From the NCBI RefSeq assembly GCF_024223415.1, contig NZ_CP100500.1: a DNA stretch of 64,000 nucleotides; one strand, written 5' to 3'. Position numbers and translations under genes: made by a program. The notes beneath the pieces are model-generated. The model was not told where the DNA came from, did not search any database, and was given only the letters and a program-made list of their open reading frames with translations. Positions 75 to 13,327 of the stretch are shown in pieces. Position 1 is the stretch's first letter. Each line of letters begins with the position of its first letter. Origin of the DNA: Escherichia coli. GTDB lineage: Bacteria > Pseudomonadota > Gammaproteobacteria > Enterobacterales > Enterobacteriaceae.

Positions 75-1178
75 TCAGAACTGATAAGTCAAACCAACAG
101 CGACAATATCATCGGTTAATACATCAGTTCTTTCAGTGAATTGATTCTTATCAAGCAGGTTGATTTTATAGTCTACGTATGTAGACATATTTTTGTTGAA
201 GTAATAAGCAGCACCGACTTCAATGAATTTTTCAATGTATCCGTCATTATGTTTTTCAGGGATACCAGTTTTGGTGGAAAGGTCTTTGGCTTTCGACTGG
301 ATATAAGCAAGAGACGGGCGCAAACCAAAGTCGAACTGATACTGTGCAACTACAGCGAAATCTTCAGTTTTATTGGCTACACCGTTGTAGCCGCCGGGCG
401 AGTACTTGATTGCGCGGGTATTACGTGTTTCACCATAAGTGGCTGCCAGGTACAGATTATTCGCGTCATATTTTACGCTGGTAGCCCACTGTTCAGCTTT
501 TTTACCTTTACCAAAAGTCGTCGCTTCCTGTGCATTGGTGCGATCGGCTGCACCATATGCAGCTACAAAACCAAAGCCTTCATATTCATAACTGACAGAG
601 CCGCCAACACCGTCGCCGTTTGAAGTGCCTGCATTGTCACGCTCATTTTTACCCAGATACTGAACCGCAAAGTTCAGTCCATCAACCAGACCGAAGAAGT
701 CGGTATTACGGTAAGTGGCAACACCACCTACACGACCCACGAAGAAGTTATCCCCGTTAACAGAACCAGGCCCAAATTCAGGGAGGACATCAGTATAGCT
801 TAATGCGTCATACACCACGCCATAGTTACGACCATAATCCAGAGAGCCAATATTTTCTAGTTTCAGGCCAGCGTATGCCAGACGGGTTTTGTCTCCTGCA
901 GAGCCATCTTTTTCTGCCTTGTTGCCTTTGAATTCATATTCCCATTGACCAAAACCAGTTAACTGATTGTTGATTTGGGTTTCACCTTTGAATCCAAGAC
1001 GGGCATAAGTTCCATCACCTTCTTCTTTGGCGTTAGAAGAAAAGTAATGTTTACCCACTACTTTGCCATATAAATCCAGTTTATTACTGTTTTTATTATA
1101 TATTTCTGCTGCATTTGCAGACATTGCCAGAAATACTGATGCTGCTACAGCAGAAAGTGCCACTGTTAAATTTTTCAT
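75..1178 (-). CDS. Outer-membrane porin, OmpC/OmpF/PhoE family (NmpC/OmpD-like prophage moron)
   Basis: 367 aa with signal peptide [23 protein letters not shown] and C-terminal beta-barrel ending GLTYQF; SD GAGGA 5 nt upstream; sits upstream of the lysis genes as nmpC does in DLP12. Confidence 0.9.
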
Positions 1179-1776: not shown

Positions 1777-1852
1777 GGCCCTTTAGCTCAGTGGTGAGAG
1801 CGAGCGACTCATAATCGCAAGGGCGCTGGTTCAAATCCAGCAAGGGCCACCA
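1777..1852 (+). tRNA. tRNA-Ile2 (anticodon CAT, lysidine type; ileX/ileZ-like)
   Basis: Cloverleaf with 7-bp acceptor ggccctt/aagggcc, D stem gctc/gagc, anticodon loop ctCATaa, T loop ttcaaat, encoded CCA; close to E. coli ileX. Confidence 0.85.
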
Positions 1853-1853
1853 A

Positions 1854-1927
1854 CCGCCACTAGCTCATCAGTACAGAGCATCAGCCTTCTAAGCAGACGG
1901 TGCGGGGTTCGAGTCCTCGGTGGCGGA
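1854..1927 (+). tRNA. tRNA-Arg (anticodon TCT)
   Basis: Acceptor ccgccac/gtggcgg, D stem gctc/gagc, anticodon loop ctTCTaa, T arm cgggg-ttcgagt-cctcg; one A-A mismatch in the anticodon stem; no encoded CCA. Confidence 0.75.
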
Positions 1928-1933
1928 TATCAT

Positions 1934-2009
1934 GCCGACTTAGCTCAGCAGGCAGAGCAGTTGATTTGTAATCATCAGGTCACCAGTTCGAACCCGGTAG
2001 TCGGCACCA
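1934..2009 (+). tRNA. tRNA-Thr (anticodon TGT), thrU-like, possibly slightly degenerate
   Basis: Acceptor gccgact/agtcggc plus ACCA, D stem gctc/gagc, anticodon loop ttTGTaa, T loop ttcgaac; one mismatch each in anticodon and T stems. Confidence 0.6.
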
Positions 2010-5051: not shown

Positions 5052-5191
5052 TAGCGATAATTTTACTCATCATCCTTCACATCTGGCTGTGTAGACAGGG
5101 TGGTGATCACTTCTGGAGTGAATCCAGATTAAACATCTCATTGCTGATGCTTGAAGTTGAGCATCTGGCGCGCGGTAAGGGGCTGCGTTGA
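5048..5191 (+). CDS. Possible small membrane protein (47 aa), ATG overlaps the Rz stop
   Basis: ATGA overlap with Rz stop; N-terminal hydrophobic [15 protein letters not shown]; followed by a terminator at 5226-5248. No homology support. Confidence 0.3.
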
Positions 5192-5248: not shown

Positions 5249-5546
5249 ATTGCCATTACAAAAGCCACTCCCTACAGAGTGGCTTTGATAATGGCTTATA
5301 CCCTACACGGGATAACTTAACTGATATCCCTTTTAACGGATAAAGGTATTCAAGCCTGACACATCATGCGCTGTATCGTCGCCGTATTCCCGTATTAACA
5401 GAGACCGTAGCCCGACGGGGAACTCCTTCTGCGCGAGTGTGCGGGAATAATCAAAAACGATGCACACCGGGTTTTACTGTGCTGACAGACGCAGGGTTAC
5501 CCTCATAGTCGCTTTTCCGGTGCGATGGTGGAAGAAACCGGGATGT

Positions 5547-8575: not shown

Positions 8576-8765
8576 ACTGCAGGCGCTGCGTCAGGCGCGC
8601 CTTGATTTATTAACCGGTAAACGGGTGGTGTCTGTCCAGAAAGATGGTCGCAGAATTGAATATACGGCGGCTTCTCTGGATGAGCTTAACCGGGCGATCA
8701 ATGATGCGGAGTCGGTACTGGGGACAACCCGACGTCGCCGTCGTCCGCTGGGAGTGAGGTTATGA
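8559..8765 (+). CDS. W: Head-tail joining protein W
   Basis: 68 aa, ...LTGKRVVSVQKDGRRIEYTAASLDEL... resembles lambda gpW; SD GGAGG. Confidence 0.9.
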   Translation: MVTVAELQALRQARLDLLTGKRVVSVQKDGRRIEYTAASLDELNRAINDAESVLGTTRRRRRPLGVRL

Positions 8766-10354
8766 AAAGAACGCCTGTCCTGATTGATGTGAACGGCGTT
8801 CCGCTTCGTGAGAGTCTCAGCTACAACGGGGGCGGCGCAGGATTTGGCGGGCAAATGGCGGAGTGGTTGCCACCGGCGCAGAGTGTCGATGCGGCCCTGC
8901 TGCCCGCGTTGCGTCTGGGGAATGCCCGGGCAGATGATCTGGTGCGCAATAACGGAATAGCGGCTAATGCGGTGGCCCTGCATAAGGATCACATAGTCGG
9001 GCATATGTTTCTGATCAGCTACCGTCCGAACTGGCGCTGGCTGGGGATGCGGGAGACCGCAGCAAAAAGCTTTGTCGATGAGGTGGAGGCGGCCTGGTCG
9101 GAATACGCCGAAGGGATGTCTGGCGAGATCGACGTGGAAGGAAAACGCACGTTCACGGAATTTATCCGGGAAGGCGTGGGCGTTCATGCGTTTAACGGCG
9201 AAATCTTTGTGCAGCCGGTCTGGGATGCGGAGACTACGCAGCTGTTTCGTACGCGTTTTAAAGCCGTGAGTCCGAAACGGGTGGACACGCCAGGATACGG
9301 TTTGGGGAACCGCTTTCTGCGGGCCGGGGTGGAGGTCGATCGGCATGGACGGGCCGTTGCGTACCATATCTGTGAGGATGATTTTCCGCTCTCTGGTAGT
9401 GGACGATGGGAACGGATCCCGCGTGAACTTCCCACCGGGCGTCCGGCCATGCTGCATATTTTCGAGCCGGTTGAGGACGGGCAGACCCGTGGGGCTAATC
9501 AGTTTTACAGCGTCATGGAACGGCTGAAAATGCTCGATTCCCTGCAGGCAACACAGCTTCAGTCAGCCATAGTGAAGGCGATGTATGCAGCGACGATTGA
9601 AAGTGAACTTGATACCGAAAAGGCCTTTGAATATATCGCCGGTGCGCCGGAGGGGCAGAAGGATAATCCGCTTATTAATATTCTGGAGAAGTTCTCCAGC
9701 TGGTATGACACGAATAACGTGACACTGGGCGGTGTCAAAATTCCGCACCTTTTCCCCGGTGATGATCTGAAACTACAGACTGCGCAGGATTCAGACAATG
9801 GATTTTCTGCGCTTGAACAGGCGCTGCTGCGGTATATCGCCGCCGGTCTTGGCGTTTCCTACGAACAGTTGTCCCGTGATTACTCGAAGGTCAGCTATTC
9901 AAGTGCCCGCGCCTCCGCCAATGAGTCGTGGCGCTATTTTATGGGGCGGCGAAAATTTATTGCGGCCCGGCTGGCCACGCAGATGTTTTCCTGCTGGCTG
10001 GAAGAGGCTCTTCTGCGGGGGATTATTCGTCCGCCACGGGCGCGTTTTGATTTTTATCAGGCGCGTTCATCCTGGTCACGGGCAGAGTGGATTGGAGCCG
10101 GAAGAATGGCCATTGACGGGCTCAAGGAGGTCCAGGAATCGGTGATGCGCATTGAGGCCGGACTGAGCACGTATGAGAAAGAGCTGGCGCTGATGGGTGA
10201 GGATTATCAGGACATTTTCCGCCAGCAGGTCAGGGAATCTGCAGAGCGGGAAAAAGCCGGACTCTCACGTCCGGTGTGGATAGCGCAGGCGTATCAGCAG
10301 CAGATAGCGGCGAGTCGCAGGCCGGAAGAGGAGACAACACCACGTGAGACGTAA
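8762..10354 (+). CDS. B: Portal protein (gpB-like)
   Basis: 530 aa, lambda-B length and position; start overlaps the W stop. Confidence 0.9.
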   Translation: MKRTPVLIDVNGVPLRESLSYNGGGAGFGGQMAEWLPPAQSVDAALLPALRLGNARADDLVRNNGIAANAVALHKDHIVGHMFLISYRPNWRWLGMRETAAKSFVDEVEAAWSEYAEGMSGEIDVEGKRTFTEFIREGVGVHAFNGEIFVQPVWDAETTQLFRTRFKAVSPKRVDTPGYGLGNRFLRAGVEVDRHGRAVAYHICEDDFPLSGSGRWERIPRELPTGRPAMLHIFEPVEDGQTRGANQFYSVMERLKMLDSLQATQLQSAIVKAMYAATIESELDTEKAFEYIAGAPEGQKDNPLINILEKFSSWYDTNNVTLGGVKIPHLFPGDDLKLQTAQDSDNGFSALEQALLRYIAAGLGVSYEQLSRDYSKVSYSSARASANESWRYFMGRRKFIAARLATQMFSCWLEEALLRGIIRPPRARFDFYQARSSWSRAEWIGAGRMAIDGLKEVQESVMRIEAGLSTYEKELALMGEDYQDIFRQQVRESAEREKAGLSRPVWIAQAYQQQIAASRRPEEETTPRET

Positions 10355-11849
10355 TCTTTCACACATTATTGCCGCAGCATTCAATGAACCGCTGCTTCTG
10401 GAGCCCGCCTATGCGCGGGTTTTCTTTTGCGCGCTCGGGCGCGAGATGGGGGCAGCAAGTCTTTCGGTACCACAACAGCAGGTACAGCTTGATGCTCCCG
10501 GAATGCTGGCTGAAACGGACGAGTACATGGCCGGAGGTAAACGACCGGCCCGTGTTTACCGGGTGGTGAACGGTATTGCTGTACTGCCGGTGACCGGCAT
10601 GCTGGTGCACCGGCTGGGTGGTATGCGGCCATTTTCCGGAATGACAGGCTATGACGGCATTGTCGCCTGTCTTCAGCAGGCAATGGCGGACACCGCTGTC
10701 CGGGGCGTACTGCTGGACATTGACAGTCCGGGCGGGCAGGTCGCAGGCGCGTTTGACTGCGCTGACATGATTTACCGCCTCCGTCAGCAGAAGCCGGTCT
10801 GGGCACTGTGCAATGACACGGCCTGTTCTGCAGCCATGCTGCTGGCGTCGGCCTGCTCCCGACGGCTGGTTACCCAGACATCCCGTATCGGCTCCATTGG
10901 CGTGATGATGAGCCATCTCAGCTATGCCGGTCATCTGGCGCAGGCCGGTGTGGATATCACGCTGATTTATGCCGGGGCGCACAAGGTGGATGGCAATCAG
11001 TTTGAAGCCTTACCGGAAGAGGTGCGTCAGGACATGCAGCAGCGCATTGATGCGGCACACCGGATGTTTGCCGAAAAAGTGGCGATGTATACCGGGCTGT
11101 CTGTGGATGTGGTCACGGGAACAGAGGCCGCCGTTTTTGAAGGTCAGTCCGGCATTGAGGCCGGGCTGGCGGATGAATTAGTCAATGCGTCGGATGCCAT
11201 CAGTGTGATGACCACGGCGCTGTACACACATGATACAGGAGGCACTATGCCGCAATTAACTGCAACGGAAGCCGCCGCGCAGGAGAACCAGCGAGTGATG
11301 GGGATCCTGACGAGTAAGGAAGCGAAAGGACGTGAACAGCTTGCCACGATGCTGGCGGGACAACAGGGCATGAGCGTTGAACAGGCCCGGGAGATCCTGG
11401 CCGCGGCGGCACCACAGCAGCCGGTGGCATCCGCGCAGAGTGAAGCCGATCGCATTATGGCGTGTGAAGAGGCGAAAGGTCGTGAACAACTGGCGGCAAC
11501 GCTGGCGGCGATGCCGGAGATGACGGTGGAAAAAGCCCGCCCGATCCTGGCAGCTTCACCGCAGGCGGATGCCGGACCATCACTCCGTGATCAGATCATG
11601 GCCCTGGATGAGGCAAAAGGGGCTGAGGCGCAGGCTGAACAGCTGGCTGCCTGCCCGGGAATGACCGTGGAGAACGCCCGGGCTGTGCTGGCTGCGGGAT
11701 CAGGTAAGGCAGAACCGGTCTCTGCATCCACAACCGCCATGTTTGAACATTTCATGGCGAACCATTCACCGGCAGCGGTACAGGGTGGCGTGCCACAGAC
11801 GTCAGCAGACGGTGATGCGGACGTGAAAATGCTCATGGCCATGCCATGA
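10344..11849 (+). CDS. C: Head maturation protease / scaffold (gpC with nested Nu3-like region)
   Basis: N-terminal half aligns with lambda C (ClpP-like protease); C-terminal part has three tandem ~40-aa EAKGREQLA repeats. Confidence 0.85.
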   Translation: MRRNLSHIIAAAFNEPLLLEPAYARVFFCALGREMGAASLSVPQQQVQLDAPGMLAETDEYMAGGKRPARVYRVVNGIAVLPVTGMLVHRLGGMRPFSGMTGYDGIVACLQQAMADTAVRGVLLDIDSPGGQVAGAFDCADMIYRLRQQKPVWALCNDTACSAAMLLASACSRRLVTQTSRIGSIGVMMSHLSYAGHLAQAGVDITLIYAGAHKVDGNQFEALPEEVRQDMQQRIDAAHRMFAEKVAMYTGLSVDVVTGTEAAVFEGQSGIEAGLADELVNASDAISVMTTALYTHDTGGTMPQLTATEAAAQENQRVMGILTSKEAKGREQLATMLAGQQGMSVEQAREILAAAAPQQPVASAQSEADRIMACEEAKGREQLAATLAAMPEMTVEKARPILAASPQADAGPSLRDQIMALDEAKGAEAQAEQLAACPGMTVENARAVLAAGSGKAEPVSASTTAMFEHFMANHSPAAVQGGVPQTSADGDADVKMLMAMP

Positions 11850-11885: not shown

Positions 11886-12233
11886 ATGGTAACGAAAACC
11901 ATCACTGAACAGCGTGCGGAAGTACGTATTTTTGCCGGTAATGATCCGGCTCATACCGCCACAGGCAGCAGCGGGATTTCCTCGCCAACACCGGCACTGA
12001 CGCCCCTGATGCTGGATGAAGCCACCGGGAAACTGGTGGTCTGGGACGGACAGAAAGCCGGTAGTGCGGTTGGCATACTGGTACTGCCGCTTGAAGGCAC
12101 AGAGACGGTGCTGACGTATTACAAGTCGGGAACCTTTGCGACGGAGGCAATCCGCTGGCCTGACAGTGTGGATGAACACAAAAAGGCCAACGCCTTTGCC
12201 GGTAGTGCCCTGAGTCACGCGGCGCTGCCGTAA
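11886..12233 (+). CDS. D: Head decoration protein D
   Basis: 115 aa; NDPAHTATGSSGIS...PLMLDEATGKLVVWDG...YKSGTF matches lambda gpD; strong SD. Confidence 0.9.
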   Translation: MVTKTITEQRAEVRIFAGNDPAHTATGSSGISSPTPALTPLMLDEATGKLVVWDGQKAGSAVGILVLPLEGTETVLTYYKSGTFATEAIRWPDSVDEHKKANAFAGSALSHAALP

Positions 12234-12290: not shown

Positions 12291-13220
12291 ATGGGATTGT
12301 TTACGACCCGCCAGTTACTCGGTTATACCGAACAAAAAGTGAAATTTCGTGCGCTGTTTCTGGAGCTGTTTTTCCGTCGTACGGTGAATTTCCATACCGA
12401 AGAGGTGATGCTGGACAAAATTACCGGAAAAACGCCGGTGGCGGCCTATGTCTCCCCGGTTGTTGAAGGAAAAGTGCTGCGTCATCGTGGTGGTGAAACC
12501 CGCGTGTTGCGTCCGGGCTACGTCAAGCCGAAACACGAATTTAATTCCCGGCAGGCGGTTGAGCGCCTTCCTGGTGAAGATCCGGCTCAACTGAACGATC
12601 CGGCTTACCGCCGTCTGCGTATCATTACCGATAACCTCAAACAGGAAGAGCACGCGATTGTCCAGGTGGAAGAAATGCAGGCGGTAAATGCCGTGCTGTA
12701 TGGCAAATACACCATGGAAGGAGACCAGTTCGAGAAAATTGAGGTCGATTTTGGCAGGTCGACGAAGAATAACATTACGCAGGCCAGTGGTAAAAAATGG
12801 TCTGAGCACGATCGTGACACGTTCGATCCTGCGCATGATATTGACCTCTACTGCGACCAGGCCAGCGGCCTTGTGAATATTGCCATTATGGACGGTACCG
12901 TCTGGCGTCTGCTGAATGGTTTTAAGCTGTTCCGCGAAAAACTGGATACCCGTCGCGGTTCAAATTCGCAACTCGAAACGGCAGTGAAAGACCTGGGGGC
13001 GGTGGTGTCTTTCAAAGGGTATTACGGTGATCTGGCCATTGTGGTGGCGAAAACGTCTTATGTGGCAGAGGACGGTACCGAAAAACGTTATCTGCCAGAC
13101 GGCACGCTGGTCCTGGGGAATACTGCTGCAGATGGGATCCGTTGTTACGGTGCCATTCAGGATGCACAGGCGTTGTCTGAAGGAGTGGTGCCTCTTCCCG
13201 TTATCCGAAACACTGGCTGA
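12291..13220 (+). CDS. E: Major capsid protein E, apparently frameshifted near 13186 (C-terminal 44 codons continue in another frame to 13318)
   Basis: N-terminal 300 aa align with lambda gpE; after ...QALSEGV the frame reaches a stop, while frame +2 encodes ASSRYPKHWLTVGDPAREFTMTQSAPLMVLPDPDEFVVVQVK, the expected gpE C-terminus. Confidence 0.75.
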   Translation: MGLFTTRQLLGYTEQKVKFRALFLELFFRRTVNFHTEEVMLDKITGKTPVAAYVSPVVEGKVLRHRGGETRVLRPGYVKPKHEFNSRQAVERLPGEDPAQLNDPAYRRLRIITDNLKQEEHAIVQVEEMQAVNAVLYGKYTMEGDQFEKIEVDFGRSTKNNITQASGKKWSEHDRDTFDPAHDIDLYCDQASGLVNIAIMDGTVWRLLNGFKLFREKLDTRRGSNSQLETAVKDLGAVVSFKGYYGDLAIVVAKTSYVAEDGTEKRYLPDGTLVLGNTAADGIRCYGAIQDAQALSEGVVPLPVIRNTG

Positions 13221-13327
13221 CGGTGGGGGATCCCGCCCGTGAATTTACCATGACGCAGTCCGCGCCGCTGATGGTGTTGCCGGACCCGGATGAGTTTGTG
13301 GTGGTACAGGTGAAATAATCCGTGAGC

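Follow-up and report, generated by a model that had tools for sequence, protein, structure and literature searches.

What are the tandem repeats in the C-terminal half of the prohead protease gene of an Escherichia coli prophage, how old are they, and what may they do in head assembly? We analysed a window of 64,000 nucleotides from contig NZ_CP100500.1 (assembly GCF_024223415.1; all positions below are those of the window), in which a first-pass annotation made from the sequence alone had drawn attention to the repeats.

The head gene cluster of a phage-21-type prophage

Sequence comparison shows that the locus belongs to a lambdoid E. coli prophage of the phage 21 type, in which it encodes the head protease and the nested scaffold. 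As in lambda and phage 21, the protease/scaffold gene is placed between a lambda-type portal gene and the genes of the decoration and major capsid proteins (Table 1). It starts with GTG, and its first 11 nucleotides are also the last of the portal gene. Genes 5 and 6 of phage 21 (GenBank M81255; complete genome OL657228) are 96.5% identical in nucleotides and 95% in amino acids. In phage 21 and the window prophage alike the long protein has 501 residues, the same internal start gives a 200-residue product, the three repeats stand at matching positions, and the gene order is portal, protease/scaffold, decoration, major capsid. The window prophage differs from phage 21 by 25 amino-acid substitutions in this protein and by an apparently frameshifted major capsid gene, which in an alignment to phage 21 and CP033635 is broken by a deletion of one nucleotide near 13189/13190. 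The protease/scaffold copy in the window prophage may therefore no longer be in use.

Table 1. Coordinates of the head genes, the repeats (boxes) and associated features in the window
Feature	Position	Strand	Basis
Portal protein gene, lambda family (phage 21 gene 4, lambda B)	8762..10354	+	Pfam Phage_portal_2, E = 1e-99
Prohead protease/scaffold fusion CDS, 501 aa	10344..11849	+	ORF; orthologue of phage 21 gene 5 and lambda C
Peptidase S49 domain (SppA/ClpP-like), aa 146-291	10779..11216	+	Pfam PF01343, E = 6.3e-36; SppA structures, E = 4e-16
Shine-Dalgarno AGGAGG of the nested scaffold gene	11237..11242	+	Sequence; sits within Gly-Gly codons
Nested in-frame scaffold gene, 200 aa	11247..11849	+	Orthologue of phage 21 gene 6 and lambda Nu3; gene 6 CDS maps to the same start
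Box 1 (Tri1 box), aa 317-357: RVMGILTSKEAKGREQLATMLAGQQGMSVEQAREILAAAAP	11292..11414	+	M81255 'Tri1 box' maps to 11314-11417
Box 2 (Tri box), aa 367-408: EADRIMACEEAKGREQLAATLAAMPEMTVEKARPILAASPQA	11442..11567	+	M81255 'Tri box' maps to 11454-11564
Box 3 (Tri3 box), aa 414-453: LRDQIMALDEAKGAEAQAEQLAACPGMTVENARAVLAAGS	11583..11702	+	M81255 'Tri3 box' maps to 11595-11708
C-terminal tail common to protease and scaffold	11727..11846	+	AF2 helix 161-173 of the 200-aa model; conserved in the alignment and in named phages
Head decoration protein gene (phage 21 shp, lambda D)	11886..12233	+	Pfam HDPD, E = 2e-24
Major capsid protein gene (phage 21 gene 7, lambda E)	12291..13319	+	Pfam Phage_cap_E

The protein had been called a homologue of lambda gpC, and its S49 domain and its 53% amino-acid identity to lambda C over the protease and box 1 region bear this out. 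The protease domain is homologous to SppA (S49; PDB 3rst, 4kwb and 3bf0), which has neither the box nor a nested scaffold gene nor a role in capsid assembly. Ser162 (CSAAM) is aligned with the Ser of the AASGG motif in Bacillus subtilis SppA (PDB 3rst), which we take to be the catalytic nucleophile; the alignment to SppA gave no confident placement of the catalytic Lys.

Within the protease gene, the ATG at 11247, the codon of Met302, follows an AGGAGG, and a ribosome-binding site is annotated at the matching place in M81255 and OL657228. The predicted 200-residue scaffold (gp6, the Nu3 homologue) would thus have its C-terminus in common with the protease (gp5, the C homologue). This part has family matches only in PHROG, to clusters 53, 1999, 8399 and 8940, described as head scaffolding protein and head maturation protease. 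Lambda shares the nested-gene logic, with AGGAGG and ATG at the homologous position, and its protein likewise has the box and, at the C-terminus, the helix and tail. It has one box where there are three here, and its scaffold has 131 residues from the start supported by a Shine-Dalgarno sequence, at position 5342 of the lambda record, against 200 here; the RefSeq nu3 has 201 residues from an upstream ATG at 5132. The C-terminal tail consists of a conserved helix (TAMFEHFMANHSP; ALDRLMQGAP in lambda) and a hydrophobic end, KMLMAMP, and both come after the last box whatever the number of boxes.

Three diverged copies of one box

The C-terminal part common to protease and scaffold holds three diverged copies of a box of about 42 residues, with 'EAKG' at residues 326, 376 and 423. 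The first-pass annotation had described three repeats of about 40 residues with the motif EAKGREQLA. The repeats are real and there are three of them; the period is longer than stated, at 50 and 47 residues (the core plus a linker), and the motif holds for boxes 1 and 2, box 3 reading EAKGAEAQAEQLA. In pairwise local alignments the box pairs have 21/34, 18/34 and 23/36 identical residues (53-64%); measured against 2000 shuffles that preserve composition, their z values are 15.8, 11.3 and 16.7. As DNA, box 1 and box 2 share 70% identity along 97 nucleotides and are spaced 150 nucleotides apart. The copies have diverged too far for Tandem Repeats Finder, which reported no repeat there; the boxes were detected instead by protein-level alignment and shuffling.

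That silence, together with an Ala-rich region, is what might be expected if the repeat were a chance effect of low-complexity composition rich in Ala, Gln and Glu. We give this explanation practically no weight, since the alignment scores lie 11-17 standard deviations over composition-matched shuffles, a profile search with the unit brings up hundreds of protease and scaffold proteins of phages, with E down to 1e-53, and the box is predicted as a confident folded domain. On these grounds a chance product of composition was ruled out.

The three repeats are already known, because the feature table of M81255, a phage 21 GenBank record from the 1990s, annotates them as 'Tri1 box / Tri box / Tri3 box', 'function unknown'. 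These boxes overlap the three that we found independently. The earlier 'Tri box' annotation is absent from the first-pass annotation, and the literature that was searched in full text gave no description of the boxes. What the window shows is thus nothing out of the ordinary for this prophage gene, which is common in E. coli and whose repeats had been described before. Among the domain models, Pfam and NCBIfam searches with residues 302-501 gave no NCBIfam match and a best Pfam match of E = 0.078, all far under the curated cut-offs, and when the box profile was run against PDB sequences, all matches were at chance level.

Alignment to lambda C places the repeats within the Nu3-like part, where lambda has a single unit. 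Lambda C has 439 residues, as the first-pass annotation stated, and the window protein is longer by 62. The attribution of this extra length to the repeats is only roughly right, the difference being the net of several changes: a count of aligned residues gives about +94 for two extra boxes with their linkers, +11 in the tail, -35 in the linker before box 1 and -8 in the N-terminal part. In lambda the linker before the box is accordingly about 35 residues longer, and it is rich in Thr, Ser and Ala.

An old triplication kept at the protein level

The boxes are 58-67% identical in nucleotides, with the differences gathered at third codon positions: at codon positions 1 and 2 the boxes agree in 67-81% of sites, at position 3 in 39-47%. 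Different codons are used at about half of the residues that are identical between boxes. The pattern of substitution argues that the boxes are under selection on the protein and not on the DNA. Each box is 59-79% identical to the box at the same position in Salmonella and other homologues, against 50-55% to its sister boxes. STM2605, the gpC homologue of the Salmonella prophage Gifsy-1, has 498 residues and three boxes in the same order, each closest to the same-position box of the window protein, while its scaffold part is only 56% identical. By this comparison the triplication is old in the phage 21 / Gifsy-1 lineage. It arose by internal tandem duplication and was then maintained by selection on the protein sequence, and occasional unequal crossovers between boxes still give in-frame alleles with 2, 2.5 or 4 boxes.

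The repeat might instead act at the DNA or RNA level, through CII-binding sites, internal promoters or as a recombination device, the protein repeat being a by-product. In its favour, gene 6 in the complete genome record of phage 21 has two minus-strand pattern matches annotated as 'CII binding site', the window has both of them (11252-11265 and 11486-11499), and recombination between boxes does happen. Just one of the two matches lies inside a box, however, leaving boxes 1 and 3 without a counterpart, and chance alone would give 15.9 occurrences of the motif TTGYN6TTGY in the window, where 10 are present. The limited nucleotide identity of the boxes and its loss mostly at third codon positions also speak against such a role, which we consider very improbable. 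A role through the annotated CII sites in particular was rejected, as the motif is no commoner than chance.

Box number among homologues and alleles

In a representative library of 1.84 billion proteins the box profile matched 907 clusters at 50% identity. Among the best 150 of these 907 clusters, 138 have one box, nine have two and three have three. An S49 domain was present in all of the long profile matches tested (10/10). One box is found in lambda, phi80 and phiARM81ld, and three in phage 21, Gifsy-1 and the window prophage. By these comparisons the box is an added part found widely among the S49 prohead proteases of phages, usually in single copy as in lambda. Homologues of the box extend to the proteases of cyanophages.

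The protease/scaffold gene is present in about one third of complete E. coli genomes, and about 97% of the 1869 that carry it have kept three boxes. The expectation that repeat number may vary thus holds among homologues, which have 1 to 4 boxes and not one number throughout, while box number hardly changes in the phage-21 lineage. The rare E. coli alleles with 2, 2.5 or 4 boxes correspond to an in-frame 150-nucleotide deletion, a 57-nucleotide deletion and a 150-nucleotide duplication, on a background that is about 95.6% identical elsewhere; box 2 is wholly or partly absent in some of them. The natural 2-box allele encodes 451 residues and the 4-box allele 551. Most variant alleles are located in head gene clusters that look intact. 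The 482-residue allele, in which box 2 is half deleted, is indexed as the exact protein in 3592 blocks of an assembly collection, and its junction was found in 56 complete genomes by a census with 100-nucleotide megablast queries (E <= 1e-25), whose counts are lower bounds for diverged alleles. Since this allele persists, either at least one box is not strictly required or the prophages that carry it are not selected for head assembly. The survey of box number is based on a full-length query and the profile search of the representative library; a homologue search with the 200-residue scaffold returned mostly gene fragments, yet with 2- and 4-box variants among them.

Predicted structure of the boxes

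A single box (residues 306-364), modelled with AF2 on an alignment of 74 box sequences, is predicted as three helices with pLDDT 91.2 and pTM 0.72. The AF2 model of the whole 200-residue scaffold has three such units joined by low-confidence linkers; its pTM of 0.28 indicates no fixed packing between boxes. From these models each box is probably an autonomous three-helix mini-domain, and the linkers, which are rich in Pro, Ala and Gln, are predicted to be flexible. The best fold matches of the box in BFVD are other phage S49 prohead proteases (TM 0.85-0.88). Foldseek with the whole 200-residue model gave zero matches at E < 1, a result that says little given the low pTM of that model, and no PDB entry covers the box. 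The likeness to the three-helix repeats of protein A, the GA module and Ebh/Embp is generic, with no sequence similarity and with scores under the homology threshold.

What the boxes may do

P22 scaffolding protein binds coat through a small C-terminal helix-turn-helix, and it is by analogy with this that an interaction role of the boxes is proposed. The boxes differ from the P22 domain in being repeated three-helix units followed by a 48-residue tail, and no sequence or fold match was found between them and a P22-type helix-turn-helix or other capsid-binding helices at scaffold C-termini. Scaffold and protease would both have to enter the procapsid and later be degraded, and it is in their shared segment that the boxes are found. 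The boxes most likely serve as interaction modules, through which the scaffold binds itself, the major capsid protein or the portal. With three of them, binding would be multivalent and of longer reach, compared with the single box of lambda behind its longer disordered linker. In lambda, Nu3-Nu3, Nu3-C, Nu3-E and Nu3-B links are recorded in a map drawn from yeast two-hybrid and literature data (PMC3224144).

The capsid-binding element could, by analogy, be the conserved C-terminal helix and tail instead of the boxes. Other phage scaffolds, those of P22, phi29 and 80alpha, bind coat protein via their extreme C-termini. The boxes would then be a passive spacer or filler that sets how long or bulky the scaffold is, or that offers material for cleavage by the protease. 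The conservation of the helix (A/F-D/E-x-F/L-M) and hydrophobic end past the last box at any box number is consistent with this, as are the natural range of 1 to 4 boxes, with propagated phages known that have one (lambda) and three (phage 21), the commonness of the allele with box 2 half deleted, and the apparent exchange of boxes for a longer disordered linker in lambda. Unlike a mere spacer, the box has nearly invariant E, G, R, A and L positions across the 907 clusters and as far as the cyanophage proteases. The strong purifying selection on the boxes, whose third codon positions are saturated, and the retention of exactly three boxes in nearly all carrier genomes, also argue against a passive role, which we regard as unlikely.

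The explanation that we favour as a whole, with a probability of roughly three in four, is thus a nested protease/scaffold gene pair of the phage 21 type in which old, triplicated boxes act as interaction modules. A broader proposal, which we advance only tentatively and hold to be somewhat doubtful, is that the box is a widespread, uncurated docking domain that recruits scaffold and S49 protease into lambda-like procapsids by attaching to the major capsid protein, the portal or another box, its copy number tuning avidity or reach.

As a discovery the repeats matter little, the boxes having been annotated in phage 21 some three decades ago. What is added here is that the S49 protease/scaffold proteins of phages contain the box as a conserved module of three helices, probably autonomous, for which Pfam and NCBIfam have no model, and that the single copy of lambda is the usual state and the three copies an old and stably retained expansion. 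The rare natural alleles with other box numbers could serve to test the role of the shared C-terminal region of the scaffold. If the docking proposal is true, the natural 1-, 2-, 2.5-, 3- and 4-box alleles would be a ready series for the study of scaffold valency and capsid assembly.

The protease/scaffold gene and its repeats

A Peptidase_S49 domain spans aa 146-291 of the 501-aa protein (E = 6e-36). SppA structures are also matched (E = 4e-16), and the serine of the SppA AASGG motif aligns with Ser162. The C-terminal part of the protein has EAKG three times, at residues 326, 376 and 423, each within a repeated unit, or box. Pairwise local alignments of the three boxes give 21/34, 18/34 and 23/36 identities, with scores 15.8, 11.3 and 16.7 standard deviations above those of 2000 shuffles of the same residues. 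The tandem repeats that the first-pass annotation noticed in this gpC homologue are therefore real, although they recur at intervals of 50 and 47 aa, not of about 40 aa, and the literal EAKGREQLA is found in two of the three copies but is absent from the other. DNA-level likeness is recognisable for boxes 1 and 2 only (70% over 97 nt, spacing 150 nt), and Tandem Repeats Finder reported nothing in the repeat region. Between boxes, identity is 67-81% at codon positions 1 and 2 and 39-47% at position 3, and different codons lie behind about half of the identical residues. The conservation of the boxes is thus at the protein level, not the DNA level.

Positions in the window of the protease/scaffold gene, its repeats and other features
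Feature	Coordinates	Strand	Remarks
OmpC/NmpC-like porin gene	75-1178	-	upstream of prophage lysis and packaging genes
Three-tRNA cluster	1777-2009	+	anticodons CAT, TCT, TGT; upstream of prophage lysis and packaging genes
Portal gene, lambda family	8762-10354		neighbour of protease/scaffold gene
ORF, 501 aa	10344-11849	+	GTG start; 11-nt overlap with upstream gene end
CII-site pattern TTGYN6TTGY	11252-11265, 11486-11499	-	pattern annotated in complete phage 21 record
Box 1, aa 317-357	11292-11414	+	in-register alignment
M81255 Tri1 box	11314-11417
Box 2, aa 367-408	11442-11567	+	in-register alignment
M81255 Tri box	11454-11564
Box 3, aa 414-453	11583-11702	+	in-register alignment
M81255 Tri3 box	11595-11708
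Decoration gene, lambda D family	11886-12233		neighbour of protease/scaffold gene
Major capsid gene, lambda E family	12291-13319		neighbour of protease/scaffold gene

In a megablast search of phage genomes, phage 21 and about 18 other coliphages matched at 96.5% identity across all 1506 nt, with the gene equal in length in nearly all of them, and phage 21 gp5 is 95% identical to the window protein without gaps. The phage 21 head operon record, M81255, annotates gene 5 and a gene 6 nested in frame, for which a separate ribosome-binding site is given. Within gene 6 it marks three repeat_region features, 'Tri1 box', 'Tri box' and 'Tri3 box', noted as 'function unknown; putative'. These map onto the three boxes of the window gene, so the repeats had been annotated before, as the Tri boxes of phage 21, and have here been found again. 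The complete phage 21 genome also annotates 'CII binding site' pattern matches (protein_bind) inside gene 6. The pattern occurs 10 times in the window against 15.9 expected, which is not above chance; these annotations are therefore probably without meaning.

The internal start is kept in the window (AGGAGG at 11237-11242, ATG at 11247), and a 200-aa scaffold is predicted from it. In lambda (NC_001416, our L001) the homologous site, record nt 5342 (L001 2843), has the same AGGAGG and ATG, with the Shine-Dalgarno sequence 5 nt upstream, and a start here would give 131 aa. RefSeq places the lambda nu3 start at an upstream ATG, record 5132 (L001 2633; 201 aa), without a good Shine-Dalgarno sequence. 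The Gly-Gly codons that bear this sequence are kept in lambda, phi80, phage 21 and Gifsy-1 but not in phiARM81ld. Judged from these sequences, the RefSeq start of lambda nu3 may be wrong.

The gene for the major capsid protein (gene 7 of phage 21) has a 1-nt deletion near 13189/13190, where the window has GGAGTGGTGCCTC and phage 21 and E. coli CP033635 have GTGGTGGCCTC. The capsid ORF stops at 13220 (309 aa vs 342 aa) and its final 43 codons are still readable in another frame, to 13319; this reflects either a head-assembly defect of the prophage or an error in sequencing. The porin gene and tRNA cluster are typical lambdoid late-region cargo, and the ORFs of 90 aa or more from the tRNAs to the lysozyme gene showed no Shiga toxin gene.

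Variation in box number

Lambda C (439 aa) is 53% identical to the window protein across the protease and box 1, and has one box (aa 362-401) where the window protein has three. In the main BLAST alignment box 1 is matched by the lambda box together with the sequence before it; in a second, box 3 and its tail are matched by the lambda box together with the tail that follows it. This is the pattern expected from internal tandem expansion. The excess of about 60 aa over lambda C that had been attributed to the repeats is indeed 62 aa, but it is a net figure to which several segments contribute. By residue count from the BLAST alignment, the two extra boxes with their linkers account for about +94 aa and a longer C-terminal tail for +11 aa, against -35 aa in a shorter linker from the internal Met to box 1 and -8 aa in the N-terminal part.

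A box profile built from 17 boxes matched 907 of 1.84 billion representative proteins at E <= 1e-3. Among the best 150 of the 907, one box is present in 138, two in nine and three in three. An S49 domain was found in all 10 long matches tested, and the median distance from the end of the last box to the C-terminus in long matches is 48 residues; short matches hit PHROG families whose annotation is head scaffolding or head maturation protease. Lambda, phi80 and Aeromonas phiARM81ld have one box, phage 21 and Gifsy-1 have three, and four boxes, mutually 81-86% identical, are present in P0033, a fragment of an E. coli protein. Repeat number thus varies between homologues, here from 1 to 4; the first-pass annotation had suggested that it might vary. 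Three small proteins of 194-223 aa in the representative library (P0122, P0213, P0215) contain two boxes each, of more diverged sequence. In P0122 and P0213 the C-terminal region is a different one, with repeated 'L-x-S-R-G-M/L' motifs, and the box may therefore be present in other scaffold architectures too.

The window boxes are 59-79% identical to the same-position boxes of Salmonella and other three-box homologues and 50-55% identical to their sister boxes, so the triplication is older than those lineages. Close E. coli relatives, at about 95.6% nucleotide identity outside the indel, include variant alleles, all in frame. A 451/452-aa allele lacks exactly one 150-nt period and keeps two boxes, a 482-aa allele (P0248; loci L007 and L008) has lost the second half of box 2 through a 57-nt deletion, and a 551-aa allele has four boxes through a 150-nt duplication. 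In the 657-aa allele (P0232), on the chromosome of E. coli O145:H28 RM12581, 156 aa are duplicated in frame, from the end of the protease domain through the internal start to boxes 1 and 2. Such a gene would have two internal scaffold starts, and the allele is either real or an assembly artefact. Junctions lie at homologous positions of different boxes (e.g. GMSVEQAR|PILAAS, CPGMT|EMTVEK), which identifies the alleles as products of unequal recombination. Head gene clusters look intact around most variants, including the 482-aa allele; the prophage with the two-box allele of O157:H7 is visibly degraded.

This is a very common gene in E. coli, present at >= 90% identity in 1869 of 5426 complete genomes. 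The 482-aa junction occurs in 56 genomes, all >= 99% identical and therefore one lineage, the two-box junctions in 1-2, and the four-box junction in none of the 5426. The exact 482-aa protein is very widespread, being indexed in 3592 blocks of the assembly collection. Copy number therefore varies between lineages and now and then inside one, and the phage-21 type strongly keeps three.

Predicted structure and possible role of the boxes

AlphaFold2, given a 74-sequence alignment, models the single box confidently (pLDDT 91.2, pTM 0.72) as three helices: a long one at the N-terminus and, after the EAKG turn, two shorter ones with the PGMT loop between them. The best three BFVD matches (Foldseek, TM 0.85-0.88) are other phage S49 prohead proteases, one from a cyanophage. 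The box profile found no credible match among PDB sequences, and Pfam and NCBIfam gave nothing near curated cut-offs on the scaffold part. In the model of the whole 200-aa scaffold the three boxes have pLDDT 70-85 and the linkers are of low confidence; a further helix (TAMFEHFMANHSP) and a disordered end follow. With a pTM of 0.28, no fixed arrangement between boxes is predicted.

Interactions of lambda Nu3 with itself, C, E and B have been reported (PMC3224144), and the common C-terminal region probably lets protease and scaffold co-assemble into the procapsid. Since the boxes are the only strongly conserved elements predicted to fold in this region, we suggest that they are repeated interaction modules. 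The main rival, in which the boxes are spacers and binding is by the conserved C-terminal helix and tail, seems to us unlikely. As interaction modules, three boxes could provide more valency or reach than the single lambda box on its longer linker.

The first observation of the repeats is borne out and its interpretation supported in part. The gene has a nested protease/scaffold architecture with a three-box modular region common to both products, which is evolutionarily stable and occasionally recombines. What is new is modest: the breadth of the box and its usual single-copy state, its predicted autonomous fold, for which there is no curated domain model, and a catalogue of natural copy-number alleles.
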